Assembly: GCA_003220955.1 (NCBI GenBank)
Contig: QHTW01000075.1
Span: forward strand, 1-38,216
Direction: 5' to 3'
Length of the DNA stretch: 38,216 nt
Source of the DNA: Gemmatimonadota bacterium
GTDB lineage: Bacteria > Gemmatimonadota > Gemmatimonadetes > Gemmatimonadales > GWC2-71-9
The translations under genes were made by a program, and so were the position numbers. Of the stretch, positions 25,623 to 32,726 are shown one piece after another (position 1 is the first letter of the stretch; every line of letters starts with the position of its first letter). The notes under the pieces are model-generated. The model saw only the letters and a program-made list of their open reading frames with translations. It made no database searches and had not been told where the DNA came from.

Positions 25623-26876
25623 TCAATCCAGCCGTCGTTCGGCGGAGCGCGCGTGACCCTCGAGCCCTTCGACCCTCCCGAACCACGCGGCGTCTTCGAC
25701 GAGTGGACGCGCGGCCGCGGAGTCGTCGATGCGCAGCCACGTGCGTACTCGCAGAAACGTGTAAACCGATAGGCCGCCCTTCGACCGCGCAGTGCCCGCG
25801 GTCGGAAGCACGTGATTGGGACCGGCACCGTAGTCCCCCAGCACCTCTGCCGATCCGCTGCCGATGAACAGCGCGCCGTAATTTCCAAGTAGCGGCGCGA
25901 CGGCGGCCGAGTCCTGGAGGCAGAGCTCCAGGTGCTCGGGCGCAAGCGCATCGCATGCCGAGATGCCTTCCTCTACACTCGCGACCACCACAACACCGCC
26001 ATTCGCGAGCGCCGCCCGAGCGACCTCGGCGCTGGGCAAGTTGCCAAGCTGGCGAGCGAGCTCCTTGTCGACGCAATCGGGCTGTGCAGGATCGAGCGTG
26101 ACGAGCACGGGCAGCGCGTCGGGGTCGTGCTCCGCCTGCGCGAGCAGATCAGCCGCAATCACTGCAGGAGAGGCGGTGGAGTCGGCGAAAACAACCAGCT
26201 CCGACGGGCCCGCGAGCATATCGATTGCAACGCGCCCCGCGACGAGCTGTTTCGCCGCCGTGACGTAGCGATTTCCGGGTCCCGCAATCACGTCACAAGG
26301 AGGAACCGGGCCCGCGCCGAACGCGAGCGCCGCAATTGCCTGCGCGCCGCCCGCCGCGAGGAGACCGTCGGCGCCGGCGATGGCCGCGGCGGCGAGCGTC
26401 ATCGGTCCCGGCTTGGGGCTCGTGACCCAGATCTCCTTCACGCCCGCCGCCCGCGCCGTCACCGCCGTCATCAGCACCGACGAGGGCAGTGGATAGCGCC
26501 CGCCGGGCGCGTAACAGCCAGCGCGCTCCAGCGGTGCGATCCAATGACCCGCCGCTCCACCAGGCACCGTGACGGTCACCGCATTCAACGCGCGCTTCTG
26601 CGCCTCGGCGAATGTCAGGATTCGCGCAGCGACGCGCTCGAGTCGCGTGCGGTCGCCGGCGGCCAAGCCATCGAGCGCCCGCGCAAGCTCGGCTCGATCC
26701 AAAAACAACGGTCCTCCGGCGGGCACGTCGCCGTGCCGCTCGGCGTGCTCCCGTAGCGCGCTCTCGCCGCGCGCGCGCACTGCGTCGACGATCGGCGCGG
26801 CGACCGCCAAGGCCTCGGCCGGCACACCGGCCGTGCGACGACGCACGAGTTCGGCAACGGAACGACGGTTCAGCAC
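25623..26876 (-). CDS. hisD: Histidinol dehydrogenase
   Basis: 417 aa; ...AGPSE...DLLAQAEHD...GDYGAGPNHVLPT... motifs. GTG start overlaps the upstream gene by 7 nt. Confidence 0.95.
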   Translation of the reverse strand: MLNRRSVAELVRRRTAGVPAEALAVAAPIVDAVRARGESALREHAERHGDVPAGGPLFLDRAELARALDGLAAGDRTRLERVAARILTFAEAQKRALNAVTVTVPGGAAGHWIAPLERAGCYAPGGRYPLPSSVLMTAVTARAAGVKEIWVTSPKPGPMTLAAAAIAGADGLLAAGGAQAIAALAFGAGPVPPCDVIAGPGNRYVTAAKQLVAGRVAIDMLAGPSELVVFADSTASPAVIAADLLAQAEHDPDALPVLVTLDPAQPDCVDKELARQLGNLPSAEVARAALANGGVVVVASVEEGISACDALAPEHLELCLQDSAAVAPLLGNYGALFIGSGSAEVLGDYGAGPNHVLPTAGTARSKGGLSVYTFLRVRTWLRIDDSAAARPLVEDAAWFGRVEGLEGHARSAERRLD

Positions 26877-28138
26877 GCGGAGGTCTTTCTGACCATCGGC
26901 CGCCGATTCACGGCCCCGTGACGACGGGCCAACTCCGCACGAACGTCGGCCAGCGTTCCGCCGCCGCGCGCCAACGCGACGAGTGCCATGTACAACACGT
27001 CGGCCGTCTCCCGCACCACATCTCCGGTCGACTCAGCCCGCGCGAGCTCGTCCGCTTCTTCGCGAAGCTTCGCCGCAAGCAGCGCTCGATCGGTCAGCAG
27101 CCGCGTGGTTCCGGAGCCCGTGACGGGCCGGGCCGCCCGGTCCGCGAGCGTCCGTTCGAGATCGAACAGATCGAACTCCGACGGCCAGCACGAGCGGCGA
27201 TTCAGGTGACAGAACCCGGCGCCCACCTGGCGCACGGTGAAACGCAGCGCATCGCGATCGCAGTCGAGGTCCACGCGCACGAGGGTCTGCGCGTTTCCCG
27301 AAGTCGCGCCTTTTTCCCAAATCGCCTGGCGCGAGCGCGACCAGTAGATCCCGCGCCGCTCAGCCACCGCGCGCGCGAGCGACTCCCGCGAACTCCAGAC
27401 GAGACCGAGTGTGCGGCTCGCGTCGTCGCACACCACGGTCGGCCACACGTCGCCTGGCAACGGCTTCGTGAGCGGCGCGGCGACCGCGTCGCCAAGCGAT
27501 AGCGTGCCGGTGTAGAGCGCCATGCCGACCTGGGCATCGGCGCCAATGCGATCGAGCTCGGCCACTTCGCCCGCAGTGGTGATACCACCCGCGGCCGTCA
27601 CGCGGGCGCCTGCCGCGGCGCGCACTACTGACTCCACGGCGGCACCGTCGTAGCCCAGCATTTCCCCCTCGTTCTCCACCTGAGTGAAGAGGAACCCACC
27701 GACAACGGGCGCAAGCTCGCCGACGCGCTCGAGCACCGGGACACCGGTCGTCCGGCGCCAACCGTCCACTACGATCTCGCCGCGTTTGGCATCCACGGCT
27801 GCGACAACGCGCTCCCGCGGCAAGGCGCCGCAGAACTCCGGCGTCGCTGCTGTGCCGATCACGATCTGGACGGCGCCGTCGTCGAGCCAGCGGCGCGCGC
27901 TGTCGAGATCGCGGATGCCTCCGCCCACGCGACACGGCGCGCGGCGGACGAGATCCCGGATCACGTCGGCGTTCGAGCCCCGGCCAAGTGCGGCGTCCAA
28001 ATCGACGACGGCCACCTCACCCGCGATTGCGAACTCCTCCAACCGCTCGACGGGATCGCCGCCGTCGAGGACGAATTCCTTGCCGCGCCGCAACTGCACC
28101 GCGCGTCCGCCCATGATGTCGATGCTCGGTACGATCAT
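26870..28138 (-). CDS. hisA-hisIE: Fusion protein HisA-like ProFAR isomerase + PR-AMP cyclohydrolase (HisI) + PR-ATP pyrophosphatase (HisE)
   Basis: 422 aa from [16 protein letters not shown].
- aa 1-~222: HisA/His6-type TIM barrel.
- aa ~228-322: [20 protein letters not shown]...LDCDRDAL...CHLNRRSCW (HisI).
- aa ~325-410: GSGTTRLL...KLREEADEL...[11 protein letters not shown] (HisE).
Track ORF trimmed. ATGA overlap with hisHF. Confidence 0.85.
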
Positions 28139-29517
28139 CGCCGCACCCGAATTCCCCGGACGGCGAGGTCCGCTTTGATGCCGTCCACCGTCTCGTCGCG
28201 GTCGTGAAAGACCGATGCCGCGAGCACCGCGTCCACGCCGGCTGCAAAGGCCGCGGCGACGTGTTCCCGCGTTCCAACGCCGCCCGAGGCGATGACGGGG
28301 ACCCGAACCGCTTCCAACGCAGCGCGCAGCAGCCGGATGTCGTGTCCCGCCCGCGTTCCATCGCGATCCCAGCTCGTAAGCAGGATCTCGCCCGCGCCCA
28401 GATGCTCGCCCTCGCGAGCCCACATCACCGCGTCGGGTCGGGCGACCTCGCGCCCGCCGATGACCAGCACCTCCCAGCAATCCGCGGCGCAGCGCGCATC
28501 GATCGCGAGGACGACGCACTGGCGGCCGAACGCGTCGGCGAGCTCGGTCAAGAGCTCAGGGCGGCGCACCGCAGCCGTGTTGACGCTCACTTTGTCTGCG
28601 CCGGCGGAAAGGAGACAACGCGCGTCATCCACGCTGCGGACGCCTCCGCCCACAGTCAGCGGAATGCGGAGCGCCGCCCGCACGCGCCGCACCGTCTCGA
28701 CCTGCGTGCCACGGCCGCTGGCGGACGCCGCGACGTCGAGGATTACGATCTCGTCGGCACCTTGGGCTTCATACCGCGCCGCCTGCTCGGCGGGGTCGCC
28801 GGCGTCGCGCAGGTCCTGGAAGCGGATGCCTTTCACCACGCGGCCATCCTTCACATCGAGGCACGGGATGATACGACGCCGCAGGCCCGACGACCCGTTC
28901 GCTGCCGGCAAGGGTCGCGCCGTTCGACCCGTAAGCCAGCGCTCGAGCAGATCCGCGCCATACGCACCCGATAGCTCGGGGTGAAACTGGCAAGCGAGCG
29001 TATGCCCGCGTTCAAGCGCGGCGAGGAATGGCACGCCGTGCGTGGTCCAGGCGGTGGTCCATCCCGGCGGACTTTCACGCAGCGCGTAGGAGTTCGCGAA
29101 CGCCGCGACCCCGGGAGTCAGCAAACGCGCTTCTGGTTCGGGCGTCACGCTGTTCCAGCCGAGATGCGGGATCCGCACATGGGGTGGCAACCGGCGACAG
29201 GTTCCCGCCACAACGCCGAGTCCCGCCACCCCGGGCGCCTCCTCACTCGCCTCGCATAACATCTGCATGCCGAGACAAATGCCGAGGATCGGTGTGCCGC
29301 GTGATCCGTGATCGCGAATGGCGGTTTCAAGACCGCGAGATCGGAGCGCCGCCATGCCAGTGCCAAACGCGCCGACACCAGGCAAAACGATGCGTGCCGC
29401 GTCGCGCACGGTTGCAGGATCGGCGGAGATGATCACGCCAGCGTTGAGGCGTCGAAAGGCGCCGGCAATCGACGCGAGATTGGCGACGCCCGAATCCACG
29501 ATCACGACGTCACTCAT
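28135..29517 (-). CDS. hisHF: Single-chain imidazole glycerol phosphate synthase (HisH glutaminase fused to HisF cyclase)
   Basis: 460 aa from [10 protein letters not shown]. HisH motifs are GICLGMQ and QFHPE. A ~15-aa linker [15 protein letters not shown] follows, then His[17 protein letters not shown]...ASGGVG. No stop between the domains. Confidence 0.9.
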
Positions 29518-30115
29518 GACTGGCAGCTCCGAGCGTGCCTTTGGTTGACGGCACGTCTTCGAATCCCGACACCCCCACCGCCTGACGCAGCGCCAGAGCG
29601 GTGGCCTTGAACGCCGCTTCGGCACGATGATGATCGTTTTCGCCCTTTAGTACATCGACATGCAGCGTCATGCGCCCCGCCGTCGCCAGCGAACGCAGGA
29701 AATGCCCGACATTCTCACACGCGAGGCCACCGATTGCCTGGCGTTGCAGGCTGAGCGCGACGTCTGAAAACGGCCGGCCGGAAAGATCGACGACCCCCCG
29801 TGCTAACGCCTCATCGAGCGGGGCGAGCGCCCAGCCGAAACGGTTGACCCCGCGCCGCTCCCCCAGGGCGCGGTCGAGTGCCTCTCCCACAGCGAGCGCA
29901 CAATCCTCGGCGGTGTGGTGATCGTCGACCTGCAGGTCCCCCTCGCACGTGAGCTTCAGGTCAAACCGCGCGTGGCGACCCAGCGTGTCGAGGAGATGAT
30001 CGAGGAAACCGATCCCCGTCTTTATCGTCGTCTTCCCGGTGCCATCGACATCGAGCGAGAGGTGAATCGATGTCTCGCGGGTGGTGCGCGTGACCGTGCC
30101 AGTGCGGGGATTCAT
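29510..30115 (-). CDS. hisB: Imidazoleglycerol-phosphate dehydratase (monofunctional)
   Basis: 201 aa. TRETSI...GIGFLDHLL...[10 protein letters not shown]...[14 protein letters not shown]. Confidence 0.95.
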
Positions 30116-31851
30116 GACAGCAACTCCTCCAGATCGGCCAGTTGATCGAGCACGCGAGCGGCGCCCGCGTCGGCGAGAGCAGCGGCGGTTGCAGCGAGGT
30201 CATCGCCGGGCGCCACGACGCCGAGCGGCAGCACGTCGGCGCCGGCGGCGGCCCGGATGTCATCGGGGGCATTGCCCACCATCCACGCCCGTCGAGCTCG
30301 CAGGCGCGTGAGTGCGAGGCGAACCGGCGCGGGGTCCGGTTTGCGCGCGGCGTCTTCCATGCAGACGACAGCGCGGAACAGGTCCGCGACACCCTCGCGC
30401 TCGAGGAACCAGCGCGCCTCCTCGCGCGGCCGCCCCGTGACGACGGCGAGCGGCAGCCGCTTCGCGAGTCGTTCGAGCAGCGCGCGTGGCACGATCAGGC
30501 GCTCGCGTTCGCGCAACCCGGGCGATCCGGCCGCGCCGAGGTACAGCGCCTGGAAGCGTGTGGTGACGCTCGCGAGCTCGGCCTGGACGCCGCGCGCCGC
30601 GATCAGGCGCTGCGTCACGATCCAATCGTTCGCCGCGTCGCCCGCGCGCAACGCATCCTCGATGTCTTCCATTGTTACGTTCACGCCGTAGGTCTCGGCG
30701 GTTGCAATCATGGCCGCGCGCTGCGACTCGCGCACGTCGGCGAGCACGCCGTCGAGATCGAAGACGAGCGCCTCAGGCGCGAGCACCGTGTCGAGGGCGC
30801 TCGTGAGGCGCTCGAAGGCGGTCGGTTCACCGGGCAGCGTGATACGCAGCGCCGTGACGATGCCGGGCCGGTCGGGAAACTCGCGGACCAGCACTCGGAG
30901 CGCGGCGAGGCCGGCGGCACAGAACCTCGCGCGTCGGCCGCACTCGACGAAGACGAAGTTTGCCTGCGACGCGCGAGGAGAGAGTCCGAGCGACGCCAGC
31001 TGCCGGGTGAGTGCCGCGCGCTCCTCACGCACCCGCGCTACGTGCGCCGCGAGCGGCCCCGCACCGCGCTCGAGCTGTCGCATCGCCAGCGCCAGCGATG
31101 GGGCGGCGACGGGATAAGGGCCGCCCGCCGCGCGCAGCACGGCGACGACGTCCGCATTGCCAACCGCGTAGCCGACCCGGCACCCCGCGAGCCCCCACGC
31201 CTTCGAGAGCGTGCGGAGCACGAGGACGTTGGGGATGTCGAGCACGGCAGCGGTGAGATCGTAATTCGCATACTCGACGTAGGCATGATCGAGCAGGACG
31301 AGAGCGCCGGGCGCCGCGGCGGCGAGCCGGCGCACGTCCGCCAGCGTGGCCACGCCACCCGTCGGATTGTTGGGCGACACGATCGCGACGACCGCGGTGC
31401 GGGCGTCGATGCGCTCCGAAAACGCGCCGGTGGGAAACGCGTCACTCGGCCACGGCACGCGCACCAGTTCGCCCCCGGCGAGCGCCGCGTAGCGATCGAG
31501 CATTTCGAAACTCGGGTCGGGAAGCAGCAGGGTGCGGCCGGGCGTGAGGAATGCGCGGCAGGCACGATCGATCGCTTCATCCGCTCCGGCGGTGACGATC
31601 ACGCGCTCGGGCGCGACGCTCCAGTGCGCGGCGAGGCGGCCAGTCAGCTCGGCAACGTCGGGGTAACGACGAAGCACCTCTGGATCGGCCTGCGCCAACT
31701 CGGCCAGCACGGCCGGCGACGGCAGGAGGCCCTCGTTCCGGTCCAGTCGCAGCATGCCGGCGCCGCTGCGGACCGGCTGGTCATACGCAGACGCGGGATT
31801 GATCCACGAACGTGGCCCGCTCCTTTCCCCGGTCCTCGTCGCGGTCGTCAT
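30112..31851 (-). CDS. hisC: Histidinol-phosphate aminotransferase fused to a C-terminal HAD-superfamily phosphatase domain
   Basis: aa 1-~355 is a class II aminotransferase (SPNNPTG, PLP-Lys in RTLSKAWGLAG). aa ~360-579 is a HAD fold with FDLDGVL (motif I), VVTG (II), RKPDP (III) and VGNAPDD (IV-like). Confidence 0.9.
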   Translation of the reverse strand: MTTATRTGERSGPRSWINPASAYDQPVRSGAGMLRLDRNEGLLPSPAVLAELAQADPEVLRRYPDVAELTGRLAAHWSVAPERVIVTAGADEAIDRACRAFLTPGRTLLLPDPSFEMLDRYAALAGGELVRVPWPSDAFPTGAFSERIDARTAVVAIVSPNNPTGGVATLADVRRLAAAAPGALVLLDHAYVEYANYDLTAAVLDIPNVLVLRTLSKAWGLAGCRVGYAVGNADVVAVLRAAGGPYPVAAPSLALAMRQLERGAGPLAAHVARVREERAALTRQLASLGLSPRASQANFVFVECGRRARFCAAGLAALRVLVREFPDRPGIVTALRITLPGEPTAFERLTSALDTVLAPEALVFDLDGVLADVRESQRAAMIATAETYGVNVTMEDIEDALRAGDAANDWIVTQRLIAARGVQAELASVTTRFQALYLGAAGSPGLRERERLIVPRALLERLAKRLPLAVVTGRPREEARWFLEREGVADLFRAVVCMEDAARKPDPAPVRLALTRLRARRAWMVGNAPDDIRAAAGADVLPLGVVAPGDDLAATAAALADAGAARVLDQLADLEELLS

Positions 31852-32726
31852 GGCACGATCTGCGACAGAGCGGAGACGACGACGTCAGTGCCGCCGGCCG
31901 CTTTCACCGCGGGAATCACCTGTGGCAAGAGCTCACGCGGCACGGCGGCCTTTACTGCGTATCCGGTGTCGCCAAACAGTCGGGATACTGTCGCTTGGCG
32001 CATGGACGGCAGCACGGCCACCACGGCGTCGAGACACGCCCCCGACGCGTTCACTTCGAGCATGACGCGCCGACGAGCCTCGAGCACGGAGTTGATCAGC
32101 AACACTAGATCGTCGATGTAGCGGCGGCGTGTCGGATCATCGAGTGCCGCGCGGTGCGCATACAGCCGCGTGGATGAGGGCATCAACACGTCGACAATCG
32201 CGAGTCCGTTAGCGTCGAGGGTCGCACCGGTGGCGGTGTTGTCGACGATCACGTCGGCGTCTTCGGGAGGAAAGACTTCTGTCGCGCCGTAAGAGCGGAC
32301 GAACTCGGCGCACACCTTCTTTGCGTCGATCCAGCGGCGCGCCATCCGCTCGTATTCCGACGCGACGACGAGACGCCGCGCGGGCAGTCGCCCGCCTTCG
32401 AGCAGCGCGACGGGAGCAGCAGCCACGAGTTGCACGGGGTCGAGGCCCGTGTCGAGCAGCTCGACGACGTCGGCTTCCAGCTCCGCCACCCAGTCGGCGC
32501 CGGCGAAGCCCACATCGCGGCTGCCGAGCGCAAGCATTTCGACGATGTTCTGGGGTTTCAGGAGCTTCGCCTCGGCCCCGGGCAGTCCCACGTCGGGCCG
32601 ATAGCCCCGGGCGCTGGGACGCACGCGGATGCCGGCATCGGCGAGAAGGGTCAGCACGCCCTGCTCCATCCGGCCCTTGGGCAGGCCGAGGCGAAACGGG
32701 ACGGCGCGGCGGACGATTGTGGACAT
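31848..32726 (-). CDS. hisG: ATP phosphoribosyltransferase, long form with C-terminal regulatory domain
   Basis: 292 aa. LGLPKGRM..., DVGFAGADW, VDNTATGATL. GGAG sits 7 nt upstream of the ATG. Confidence 0.9.
   Translation of the reverse strand: MSTIVRRAVPFRLGLPKGRMEQGVLTLLADAGIRVRPSARGYRPDVGLPGAEAKLLKPQNIVEMLALGSRDVGFAGADWVAELEADVVELLDTGLDPVQLVAAAPVALLEGGRLPARRLVVASEYERMARRWIDAKKVCAEFVRSYGATEVFPPEDADVIVDNTATGATLDANGLAIVDVLMPSSTRLYAHRAALDDPTRRRYIDDLVLLINSVLEARRRVMLEVNASGACLDAVVAVLPSMRQATVSRLFGDTGYAVKAAVPRELLPQVIPAVKAAGGTDVVVSALSQIVP

Follow-up and report, generated by a model that had tools for sequence, protein, structure and literature searches.

The closest described relatives of the enzyme presented here are two archaeal HAD phosphatases: nmHisN, assayed by Kinateder et al. 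2024, and toHisN of the Thermococcales, whose assay they cite, both being specific histidinol-phosphate phosphatases (HolPases) (PMC10804674). The toHisN assay, in the form in which Kinateder et al. 2024 cite it, is that of Lee et al. 2008 (PMC10804674). nmHisN hydrolyses neither phosphoserine nor PLP, and its cap bears a fingerprint consisting of Y24, D25 (or R), K56 (or R) and E64 (or D), in which the Y24A substitution cuts kcat/KM about 300-fold and K56A about 4000-fold (PMC10804674). In GapMind, histidinol-phosphate phosphatase was a low-confidence step in 28% of 148 prototrophic microbes (PMC7311316).

The window, that is the whole stretch of 38,216 nucleotides analysed here (contig QHTW01000075.1 of a Gemmatimonadota MAG), contains a his operon in which a HAD domain follows HisC on a single chain. 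The fused HAD domain probably supplies the "missing" histidinol-phosphatase step of the his operon of this soil-type bacterium.

The hisC-HAD gene and its operon

A sequence-only reading of the window had reported a HAD phosphatase domain fused to HisC, and the fusion stands: the gene is an uninterrupted ORF (Table 1) in which Pfam locates both domains: residues 38-343 match Aminotran_1_2 (E 8e-47), and residues 360-539 match HAD_2 and Hydrolase (E 3e-15 and 2e-14). An assembly or frameshift artefact joining two separate genes might be suspected in a MAG broken into 326 contigs, all the more as unfused adjacent hisC and HAD genes are present in one family of the survey (f10). However, the in-frame fusion recurs, with 95% identity, in a 99%-complete congener; over 120 close homologues and the majority of the top 150 cluster representatives have it as well. 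Since hundreds of homologues share the two-domain architecture, the probability of an artefact is negligible.

The HisC part scores 228.9 bits against TIGR01141, under the 276.55 cut-off, but this is still its top family, and the same part is the best HisC match of the whole MAG. At E <= 1e-20 the HisC part matches 12 PDB entries, each of them a HisC or a closely related aminotransferase; ten are named histidinol-phosphate aminotransferase (outright, probable or putative) and one putative phenylalanine aminotransferase. K217, in SKAWGLAG, aligns to SKAFALAG of 7szp. For the HAD domain, the best NCBIfam match is TIGR01548, with 125.6 bits (122.3 for the whole protein), under the 140.2 cut-off, in an alignment that spans model positions 2-195 of 197. 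HMM searches and structure prediction, which the sequence-only reading had proposed as checks, thus returned an aminotransferase and a HAD-IA domain from Pfam and NCBIfam and an AF2 model of the HAD domain with a pLDDT of 96.2. The model has helices between motifs I and II, and Foldseek matches it with probability 1.00 to many HAD-IA structures, 6iah among them; the predicted fold is that of a Rossmann-like core with a C1 cap, subfamily IA. The four motifs cited in the earlier reading (FDLDGVL, VVTG, RKPDP and VGNAPDD) are all present in the domain.

The stop of hisG overlaps the start of hisC-HAD in an ATGA, as does the stop of hisC-HAD with the start of hisB. The latter gene had been described as monofunctional, a dehydratase of 201 aa, in agreement with Pfam, which finds just the IGPD domain.

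Table 1. Features of the his operon and of the hisC-HAD gene (positions in the window)
Feature	Position	Strand	Basis or remark
hisD, histidinol dehydrogenase	25623..26876	-	Pfam Histidinol_dh, E 3e-124; its substrate is the phosphatase product
hisA-hisI-hisE fusion, 422 aa	26870..28138	-	Pfam His_biosynth + PRA-CH + PRA-PH
hisH-hisF fusion, 460 aa	28135..29517	-	Pfam GATase + His_biosynth
hisB, IGP dehydratase only, 201 aa	29510..30115	-	Pfam, IGPD domain alone
hisC-HAD fusion gene, 579 aa + stop	30112..31851	-	single uninterrupted ORF; Pfam Aminotran_1_2 + HAD_2/Hydrolase
HAD-IA phosphatase domain, residues 360-579, candidate histidinol-phosphate phosphatase	30115..30774	-	TIGR01548, AF2, Foldseek, hhalign
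HAD motif IV VGNAPDD, residues 525-531; N527 for first Asp, D530 and D531 kept	30259..30279	-	alignment
HAD motif III RKPDP, residues 503-507 (K504)	30331..30345	-	K invariant
HAD motif II VVTGRPR, residues 470-476 (T472)	30424..30444	-	V-T-G-R invariant
Cap segment ALRAGDAANDW; L401 for family Lys (nmHisN K56 position)	30622..30654	-	family alignment
Cap helix 1 RESQRA; Q377 for family Tyr (nmHisN Y24 position), R378 the family-invariant Arg	30715..30732	-	family alignment; PMC10804674
HAD motif I FDLDGVL, residues 364-370; putative nucleophile D365, putative acid/base D367	30742..30762	-	both Asp invariant in 310 family domains
HisC (histidinol-phosphate aminotransferase) domain, residues 1-355	30787..31851	-	TIGR01141, PDB matches
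HisC PLP lysine K217 in SKAWGLAG	31183-31206	-	motif alignment
hisG, long form with C-terminal domain	31848..32726	-	Pfam

Family membership and co-occurrence with the his pathway

In profile-profile comparison (hhalign), the HAD domain matches the Thermococcales his-operon HADs with a probability of 99.6% and an E of 7e-25, cap included. Its best PDB sequence match is 6iah (E 5e-16), the structure of Tt82 from Thermococcus thioreducens, with which it shares 33% identity (BLASTP, E 1e-16) and whose gene lies directly after hisC in a complete Thermococcus his operon. Because Tt82 is the closest solved relative and is encoded after hisC, the HAD domain is placed in the toHisN/nmHisN family, a relation bridged via Tt82 and the Thermococcales his-operon HADs, T. 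onnurineus not being among the named matches. PDB 6iah is probably already a histidinol-phosphatase structure. Family positions 18, 19, 42 and 50 (domain numbering, in which position 1 is residue 360) align to Y18, D19, R48 and D56 of Tt82. The family consensus at these positions, Y-R-K-D, is the fingerprint of Kinateder's cluster II and delta-proteobacterial sequences, and some HisC-HAD fusions bear an exact Y-D-R-D or Y-D-K-D; the wider bacterial family displays one of these three forms. A contig scan for counterparts of nmHisN (Nmar_1556) and toHisN gave bacterial loci only, among the matches listed, and an ESM Atlas look-up for their relatives gave only generic HAD clusters.

The family, which extends from Thermococcales to eukaryotes, has been joined to histidine enzymes repeatedly and independently. 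Elsewhere it is fused to IGPD, to HisD and IGPD, in a HisD-HisC...IGPD arrangement or in HisA-HisIE-HisD-HisC, and in eukaryotes it is part of whole His chains. The HisC-HAD fusion itself is present at no fewer than 413 confirmed loci in hundreds of species-level genomes, from phyla that include Gemmatimonadota, Planctomycetota, Myxococcota, Acidobacteriota and Methylomirabilota, and also in protists. These homologues are mostly named just "histidinol-phosphate aminotransferase" or "HAD hydrolase", JGI using the TIGR01548 name for many, and no description of the fusion was found in a literature search.

Among 121 Gemmatimonadota genomes, IGPD is encoded in all 23 that carry the HAD domain, in 22 of which the domain lies just upstream of IGPD, and the domain occurs in none of the 44 genomes devoid of IGPD. 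In two congeners that have no his operon the HAD domain is missing, whereas a generic IMPase and a GmhB-like HAD are kept. The sequence-only reading had proposed the fused domain as the missing histidinol-phosphate phosphatase; Thermococcales homology, recurrent independent fusions, strict co-occurrence with IGPD and the finding of no other known HolPase type in near-complete congeners support this as a predicted function.

That last point is borne out by searches at three levels. The earlier reading had found no PHP-type or IMPase-type phosphatase in the operon, and none matching TIGR01856 or TIGR02067 is present anywhere in the MAG, which is only 75.5% complete. TIGR01261 has no match over cut-off in the MAG or in the 121 genomes of the phylum; TIGR01656 gives 32.4 bits on the fused domain, against a cut-off of 84. 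The search for other histidinol-phosphatase families that had been suggested was likewise negative in congeners 95-99% complete, which encode neither a PHP HisJ nor a SerB-like protein, and in which no HisB-N match passes the cut-off and no HisN-like IMPase reaches 190 bits.

Three candidates were set aside. For the HisB-N type, the MAG has a single match (L001), of 52 bits; the congeners' counterparts, at about 76-84 bits, are GmhB-like, and a congener without his operon (G050) also keeps one. A generic IMPase of about 140 bits is considered unlikely to be the pathway enzyme because that congener and another (G058) keep it without IGPD and HisC. The SerB/paHisN type has no match in the genus.

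Complementarity between the HAD domain and the other HolPase types is only partly clean. Other Gemmatimonadota carry HisN or PHP types, the HisN gene adjoining IGPD. Genomes of family f10 nevertheless carry a TIGR01548-like HAD and PHP HisJ together, 12 IGPD-negative genomes have a strong HisN-like IMPase, and 18 IGPD-positive genomes have none of the known types. Some related genomes must therefore use an unrecognised HolPase, which the genus under study could have as well.

Five changed active-site positions in a genus-level clade

Five active-site changes co-occur in the genus-level clade to which this domain belongs: Y18Q, K42L, A43R, N48A and D168N. The last affects motif IV, whose acidic pair in the HAD superfamily is DD, GDxxxD or GDxxxxD. 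The motif reads G-N527-A-P-D530-D531 here and GDTxND in Thermococcales relatives, that is with one amide among three positions. The first Asp, replaced here by Asn, normally helps Mg2+ binding.

The sequence-only reading had regarded this GN as a point of doubt, justifiably: GN is a fixed trait of about 136 sequences that form a clade, and the position of the first motif IV Asp is N in 136 of 144 sequences of the Q group and D in 159 of 159 Y-group sequences. The doubt reaches further than it supposed, since two of the five changes hit the four experimentally defined fingerprint residues of nmHisN. The corresponding residues are Q377, R378, L401 (with R402 adjacent) and D409, so that the nmHisN fingerprint is matched at two positions out of four. 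In the cap segment ALRAGDAANDW, R402 and A407 are clade-specific and D409 and W410 family-invariant. R19, D50, W51 and the catalytic residues have all been retained, the catalytic D, D, T, K, D and D being invariant in 144 of 144 members, and the new residues Q, L, R and N are conserved within the clade. From homology, the five changed residues are expected to cluster in space.

The ratio dN/dS is 0.16-0.37 for the HAD part, no higher than for the HisC part (0.22-0.58), and 0.13-0.19 for the cap alone against congeners. Purifying selection on the HAD domain is therefore no weaker than on HisC. This bears on the possibility that in this clade the HAD domain has little or no catalytic activity and persists for a structural or regulatory role attached to HisC, as might be suggested by its score under the family cut-off and by the disappearance of the cap Tyr and Lys and of one of the Asp residues that bind Mg2+. 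Relaxed selection, however, would not conserve the new residues themselves, and the invariance of the nucleophile and of the core motif residues in 144 sequences also argues against a dead domain, which is thus very improbable.

Another explanation is that the HAD has been remodelled for another substrate or metal, e.g. phosphoserine or another amino-alcohol phosphate, histidinol phosphate being served by a different promiscuous or unrecognised enzyme. Five near-invariant active-site positions were indeed altered together on one branch, two of them experimentally important, 18 related genomes manage without a known HolPase type, and the genus has no SerB-type phosphoserine phosphatase match. 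Yet the domain stays fused to HisC and was lost along with the his operon in congeners, R19, D50, W51 and the catalytic residues are unaltered, and nmHisN is inactive on phosphoserine and PLP. Moreover, HisC-type genes are also the fusion partners of the intermediate forms QRIRAD, YRTLND and YRVLND, which points to gradual drift inside one function. A shift of substrate or metal requirement is consequently unlikely.

I read the five changes as a putative compensated rewiring, which would preserve a basic residue in the cap (R402, beside the lost Lys) and leave motif IV with two carboxylates out of three. The five-position rewiring of the genus-level clade is new here. That the clade forms a distinct mechanistic subtype, with a rewired site and either a different metal, or charges differently arranged, or a substrate range that has widened or shifted, is a tentative suggestion with perhaps a slim chance of being right. 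The cap Lys would then have moved by one position to become Arg, Tyr, Asn and the Mg2+-binding Asp being replaced by Gln, Ala and Asn, respectively, a sequence of events that is just as doubtful. With the same reserve, its path might be traced via surviving forms, YRKxND to YRV/TLND to QRIRAD to QRLRAN.

Because five active-site changes are found under selection that is still strong, the function of HolPase is probable, not certain. In weighing it, the Asn borne by Thermococcales enzymes at another acidic position of motif IV was counted in favour, as were substitutions that appear repeatedly in other family members, namely Gln, Phe or His for position 18 and Thr, Val or Ile for position 42. 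Counted against were the two lost nmHisN fingerprint positions, the replaced Mg2+-binding Asp, the TIGR01548 score, the f10 overlap of HAD and PHP HisJ, the 18 genomes without a known type and the incompleteness of the MAG.

Proposed function and comparison with described enzymes

The gene likely encodes a bifunctional HisC and histidinol-phosphatase, activity on histidinol phosphate in this clade being a prediction from sequence. The PLP-dependent HisC domain would convert imidazole-acetol phosphate and glutamate to L-histidinol phosphate, which the HAD domain would split into L-histidinol and phosphate, histidinol then being oxidised by HisD. By the standard HAD mechanism, D365 would attack the phosphorus to form an aspartyl-phosphate, with D367 as general acid/base, T472 and K504 holding the phosphate, and N527, D530 and D531 holding Mg2+, while the helical C1 cap (about residues 372-455) would close over the substrate's imidazole and amino groups.

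If this is true, the fusion fills a common annotation gap, at the step most often blank in amino-acid pathway reconstructions, and its tie to an assayed archaeal family makes the gap testable by one enzyme assay. With two successive steps naturally united in one polypeptide, it could serve to ask about channelling of histidinol phosphate. The rewired site, as a natural mutational path, could reveal which cap residues truly set specificity.

Like toHisN and nmHisN, the domain has a HAD core with a single helical C1 cap and belongs to a his operon, beside hisC; it shares with them S17, the Asp matching E64/D64 and the T-G-R and K-P motifs. Those enzymes are stand-alone, whereas the domain is fused to the HisC C-terminus, its cap is shorter (about five helices versus seven to nine), its fingerprint is Q-R-L(R)-D rather than Y-D-K/R-E/D, and its motif IV is GNxPDD. 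Tt82, the closest solved structure by sequence, is also a Foldseek match, and its gene too follows hisC. It differs in being a stand-alone protein of 241 aa with a cap insertion of about 35 residues and a GDTxND motif IV, and its PDB entry calls it a generic phosphatase rather than a HolPase. The best-scoring model, TIGR01548 (HAD-SF-IA-hyp1), is a hypothetical equivalog with no function assigned, whose cut-off is reached by none of the 121 Gemmatimonadota genomes. IMPase-type HisN and PHP-type HisJ/K act at the same pathway step with unrelated folds. In E. coli and Salmonella HisB (HisNB), the HolPase is, as proposed here, a HAD domain fused to another His enzyme, but one of another subfamily (IIIA, DDDD, without the C1 helical cap), and its partner is IGPD, which catalyses step 6, whereas the partner here is HisC, which catalyses step 7, so that the fused steps are consecutive.

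The his operon of the window

On the minus strand of the window lies a compact his operon, consisting of hisG, hisC-HAD, hisB, hisH-hisF, hisA-hisIE and hisD. ATGA stop/start overlaps join hisC-HAD to hisG on one side and to hisB on the other. Since hisH and hisF, as well as hisA, hisI and hisE, are also fused, all ten steps would be specified by six overlapping genes; the hisH-hisF fusion resembles eukaryotic HIS7. The sequence-only reading had proposed that the HAD domain fused to HisC is the missing histidinol-phosphate phosphatase (HolPase), and it rightly took hisB to encode the dehydratase (IGPD) only.

Coordinates of the his genes in the window
Gene	Positions	Strand	Product
hisG	31848-32726	minus	
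hisC-HAD	30112-31851	minus	579 aa
hisB	29510-30115	minus	IGPD only
hisH-hisF	28135-29517	minus	fusion, 460 aa
hisA-hisIE	26870-28138	minus	fusion (hisA-hisI-hisE), 422 aa
hisD	25623-26876	minus	

The class I/II aminotransferase domain of the hisC-HAD product occupies residues 38-343 (Pfam). Its top family is TIGR01141 (229 bits, below the 276.55 cut-off), its PDB matches are mostly HisC enzymes with which the PLP lysine motif aligns, and it is the top HisC candidate of the whole MAG; this half looks like a working HisC. The HAD domain spans residues 360-539 (Pfam), and the four HAD motifs named in the sequence-only reading were all found in place. The profile searches and structure prediction which that reading had recommended agree on a HAD-IA-type domain. 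The best NCBIfam model is TIGR01548 (125.6 bits, slightly below the 140.2 cut-off), a hypothetical equivalog without assigned function (NCBIfam). The AlphaFold2 model, built with 17 homologues as input, is confident (pLDDT 96.2). Its core is Rossmann-like, and helices located between motifs I and II form a C1 cap; Foldseek matched the model to HAD-IA phosphatases.

Relatives of the HAD domain

Among solved structures, Tt82, a phosphatase from Thermococcus thioreducens, is nearest in sequence (PDB 6iah; E 5e-16 in the PDB sequence search, and 33% identity with E 1e-16 by BLASTP). The Tt82 gene (L101:6001-6726, protein P0393) comes last in a complete his operon, where it overlaps the hisC end. 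This context of 6iah was worked out here, and the generically named structure may be an already-solved one of a probable HolPase. Profile-profile comparison of the bacterial HAD family with the Thermococcales family gave a probability of 99.6% (E 7e-25), with 35% identity over 172 columns, cap included. In archaea, Nmar_1556 (nmHisN) was shown to be a specific histidinol-phosphatase and was grouped with the previously assayed T. onnurineus toHisN as one HolPase family, with a cap fingerprint Y24, D25, K56, E64 that reads Y-D-R-D in toHisN and Y-R-K-D in euryarchaeal and delta-proteobacterial clusters (Kinateder et al. 2024, PMC10804674). In alignments, family positions 18/19/42/50 (domain numbering, position 1 being residue 360) correspond to Tt82 Y18/D19/R48/D56. 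The bacterial consensus at these positions is Y-R-K-D, and several HisC-HAD fusions have exactly Y-D-R-D or Y-D-K-D.

Among 1.84 billion cluster representatives searched, 504 matched at E <= 1e-30, the best 150 of which are mostly HisC-HAD fusions of 540-600 aa, and a genome scan confirmed at least 413 loci, in Gemmatimonadota, Planctomycetota, Myxococcota, Acidobacteriota, Methylomirabilota and other phyla. The fusion is common in sequence databases, where it is mostly named for its first half alone; a literature search found no description of it. The same HAD also occurs in HAD-IGPD (the oomycete Lagenidium), HisD-HAD-IGPD, HisD-HisC-HAD-IGPD (1401 aa) and HisA-HisIE-HisD-HisC-HAD (Protostelium, 1501 aa) fusions, which are eukaryotic multi-enzyme His proteins (P0299, P0373, P0372/P0390, P0375, P0382). 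In HAD-bearing multi-His chains, the phosphatase is the sole His step without an enzyme, and these fusions are independent evidence for a probable role of the HAD in histidine synthesis.

Co-occurrence with IGPD in Gemmatimonadota

The window's MAG and 120 other Gemmatimonadota genomes were surveyed (119 of the 121 with completeness of 90% or more and contamination of 5% or less); counts are given without a statistical test because kin are not independent. IGPD is present in 77 genomes. Strong TIGR01548-like matches (E <= 6e-20; next best 5e-13) were found in 23 genomes, all IGPD-positive, and in none of the 44 IGPD-negative ones; in 22 of the 23 genomes IGPD follows shortly after the match, in the same orientation. 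Strong HisN-like IMPases (190 bits or more) occur in 36 other IGPD-positive genomes, adjoining IGPD in about 17, and a single genome has both a strong HAD match and a strong IMPase of this kind. No HisB-N domain scored above cut-off in any of the 121 genomes. Eighteen IGPD-positive genomes have none of the known HolPase types, and an unrecognised phosphatase must therefore exist in Gemmatimonadota. One of them, G118 (L018, G118:C1:499500-516000), has the operon hisC-hisB-hisH-(NUDIX domain)-hisF, in which the NUDIX gene is a possible substitute for HisE. A caveat to the survey is family f10, where the HAD is unfused and separates hisC from hisB; in 8 of its 9 genomes a PHP-type HisJ over cut-off is also encoded elsewhere. 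In the exception, G008, the TIGR01548-like HAD between hisC and hisB (L019:5810-6853, protein P0392) has a long cap insertion (SFR...K..NNDW...GDVPDD); an unfused HAD in this position is also known from Thaumarchaeota.

All five genomes of the window's genus that have a his operon carry the HisC-HAD fusion (95% identity to the window in G004). The search for other HolPase families advised by the sequence-only reading found no PHP HisJ, SerB-like protein or over-cut-off HisB-N in this genus. Two congeners, G050 and G058, have neither IGPD nor HisC-HAD. Both keep a generic IMPase (~140 bits) and G050 keeps a GmhB-like HAD (no match in G058 at E <= 1e-20), so that neither protein is histidine-specific. 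With the Thermococcales homology, the multi-His fusions and the co-occurrence with IGPD, among other evidence, the original proposal gains support: the HAD domain is probably the cell's histidinol-phosphatase.

Three further observations concern these genomes. Judging by the 44 that lack IGPD, G050 and G058 among them, many members of the phylum seem to be histidine auxotrophs, and this trait seems to vary within a genus. SerB-type phosphoserine phosphatase (TIGR00338) was not found in the whole genomes of G000, G004, G007, G069, G097 and G050. In the congener G042 (L016/L017, G042:C4:278937-283582), the HisC-HAD match breaks into two frames around residues 491-510, which lie between HAD motifs II and III; the cause is a frameshift or an error of assembly.

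A remodelled active site

The sequence-only reading had regarded GN in motif IV as its point of doubt. The substitution is real, but it does not stand alone: it is one of five linked changes, which appeared when 310 extracted family domains were split by the residue at position 18.

Residues at linked positions of the HAD domain
Position	Gln-18 group (n=144)	Tyr-18 group (n=159)
42	Leu/Met/Phe/Ile in 139	Lys in 125
43	Arg in 138	Ala in 77; Arg never among top residues
48	Ala/Ser/Thr in 133	Asn in 151
168	Asn in 136	Asp in 159

Fully remodelled sequences form a single FastTree clade (136 tips, support 0.98). Its successive sister groups, QRIRAD (3 tips), YRTLND (5), YRVLND-like (14) and then canonical YRKxND, suggest a stepwise path, in a midpoint-rooted phylogeny whose deeper steps have supports of just 0.70-0.83. 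Among the phylum genomes surveyed, only the window's genus shows the remodelled signature, the other fusion-bearing genera having Y-R-K, Y-D-R or Y-R-I. Across the Gln-18 group there is no variation at the core catalytic residues D6, D8, T113, K145, D171 and D172, nor at S17, D50 and W51; 140 of the 144 members retain R19, and the newly acquired residues show conservation of their own. Pairwise dN/dS of the HAD part (0.16-0.37) does not exceed that of the accompanying HisC part (0.22-0.58) by NG86, a rough method given the GC content and divergence. Elsewhere in the family, Phe/Gln/His recur at position 18 and Thr/Val/Ile at position 42, and Thermococcales members have Asn at a different acidic position of motif IV (GDTxND). 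Two of the changed positions belong to the fingerprint shown by experiment to be critical (PMC10804674), so specificity or efficiency could be altered in the clade. I read the remodelling as a putative compensated rewiring of a working site, a clade-specific feature worked out in this analysis.

The enzyme family is already known from the archaeal HolPases nmHisN and toHisN. E. coli HisNB likewise joins a HolPase to another His enzyme, but its HAD subfamily and its fusion partner differ from those of HisC-HAD.
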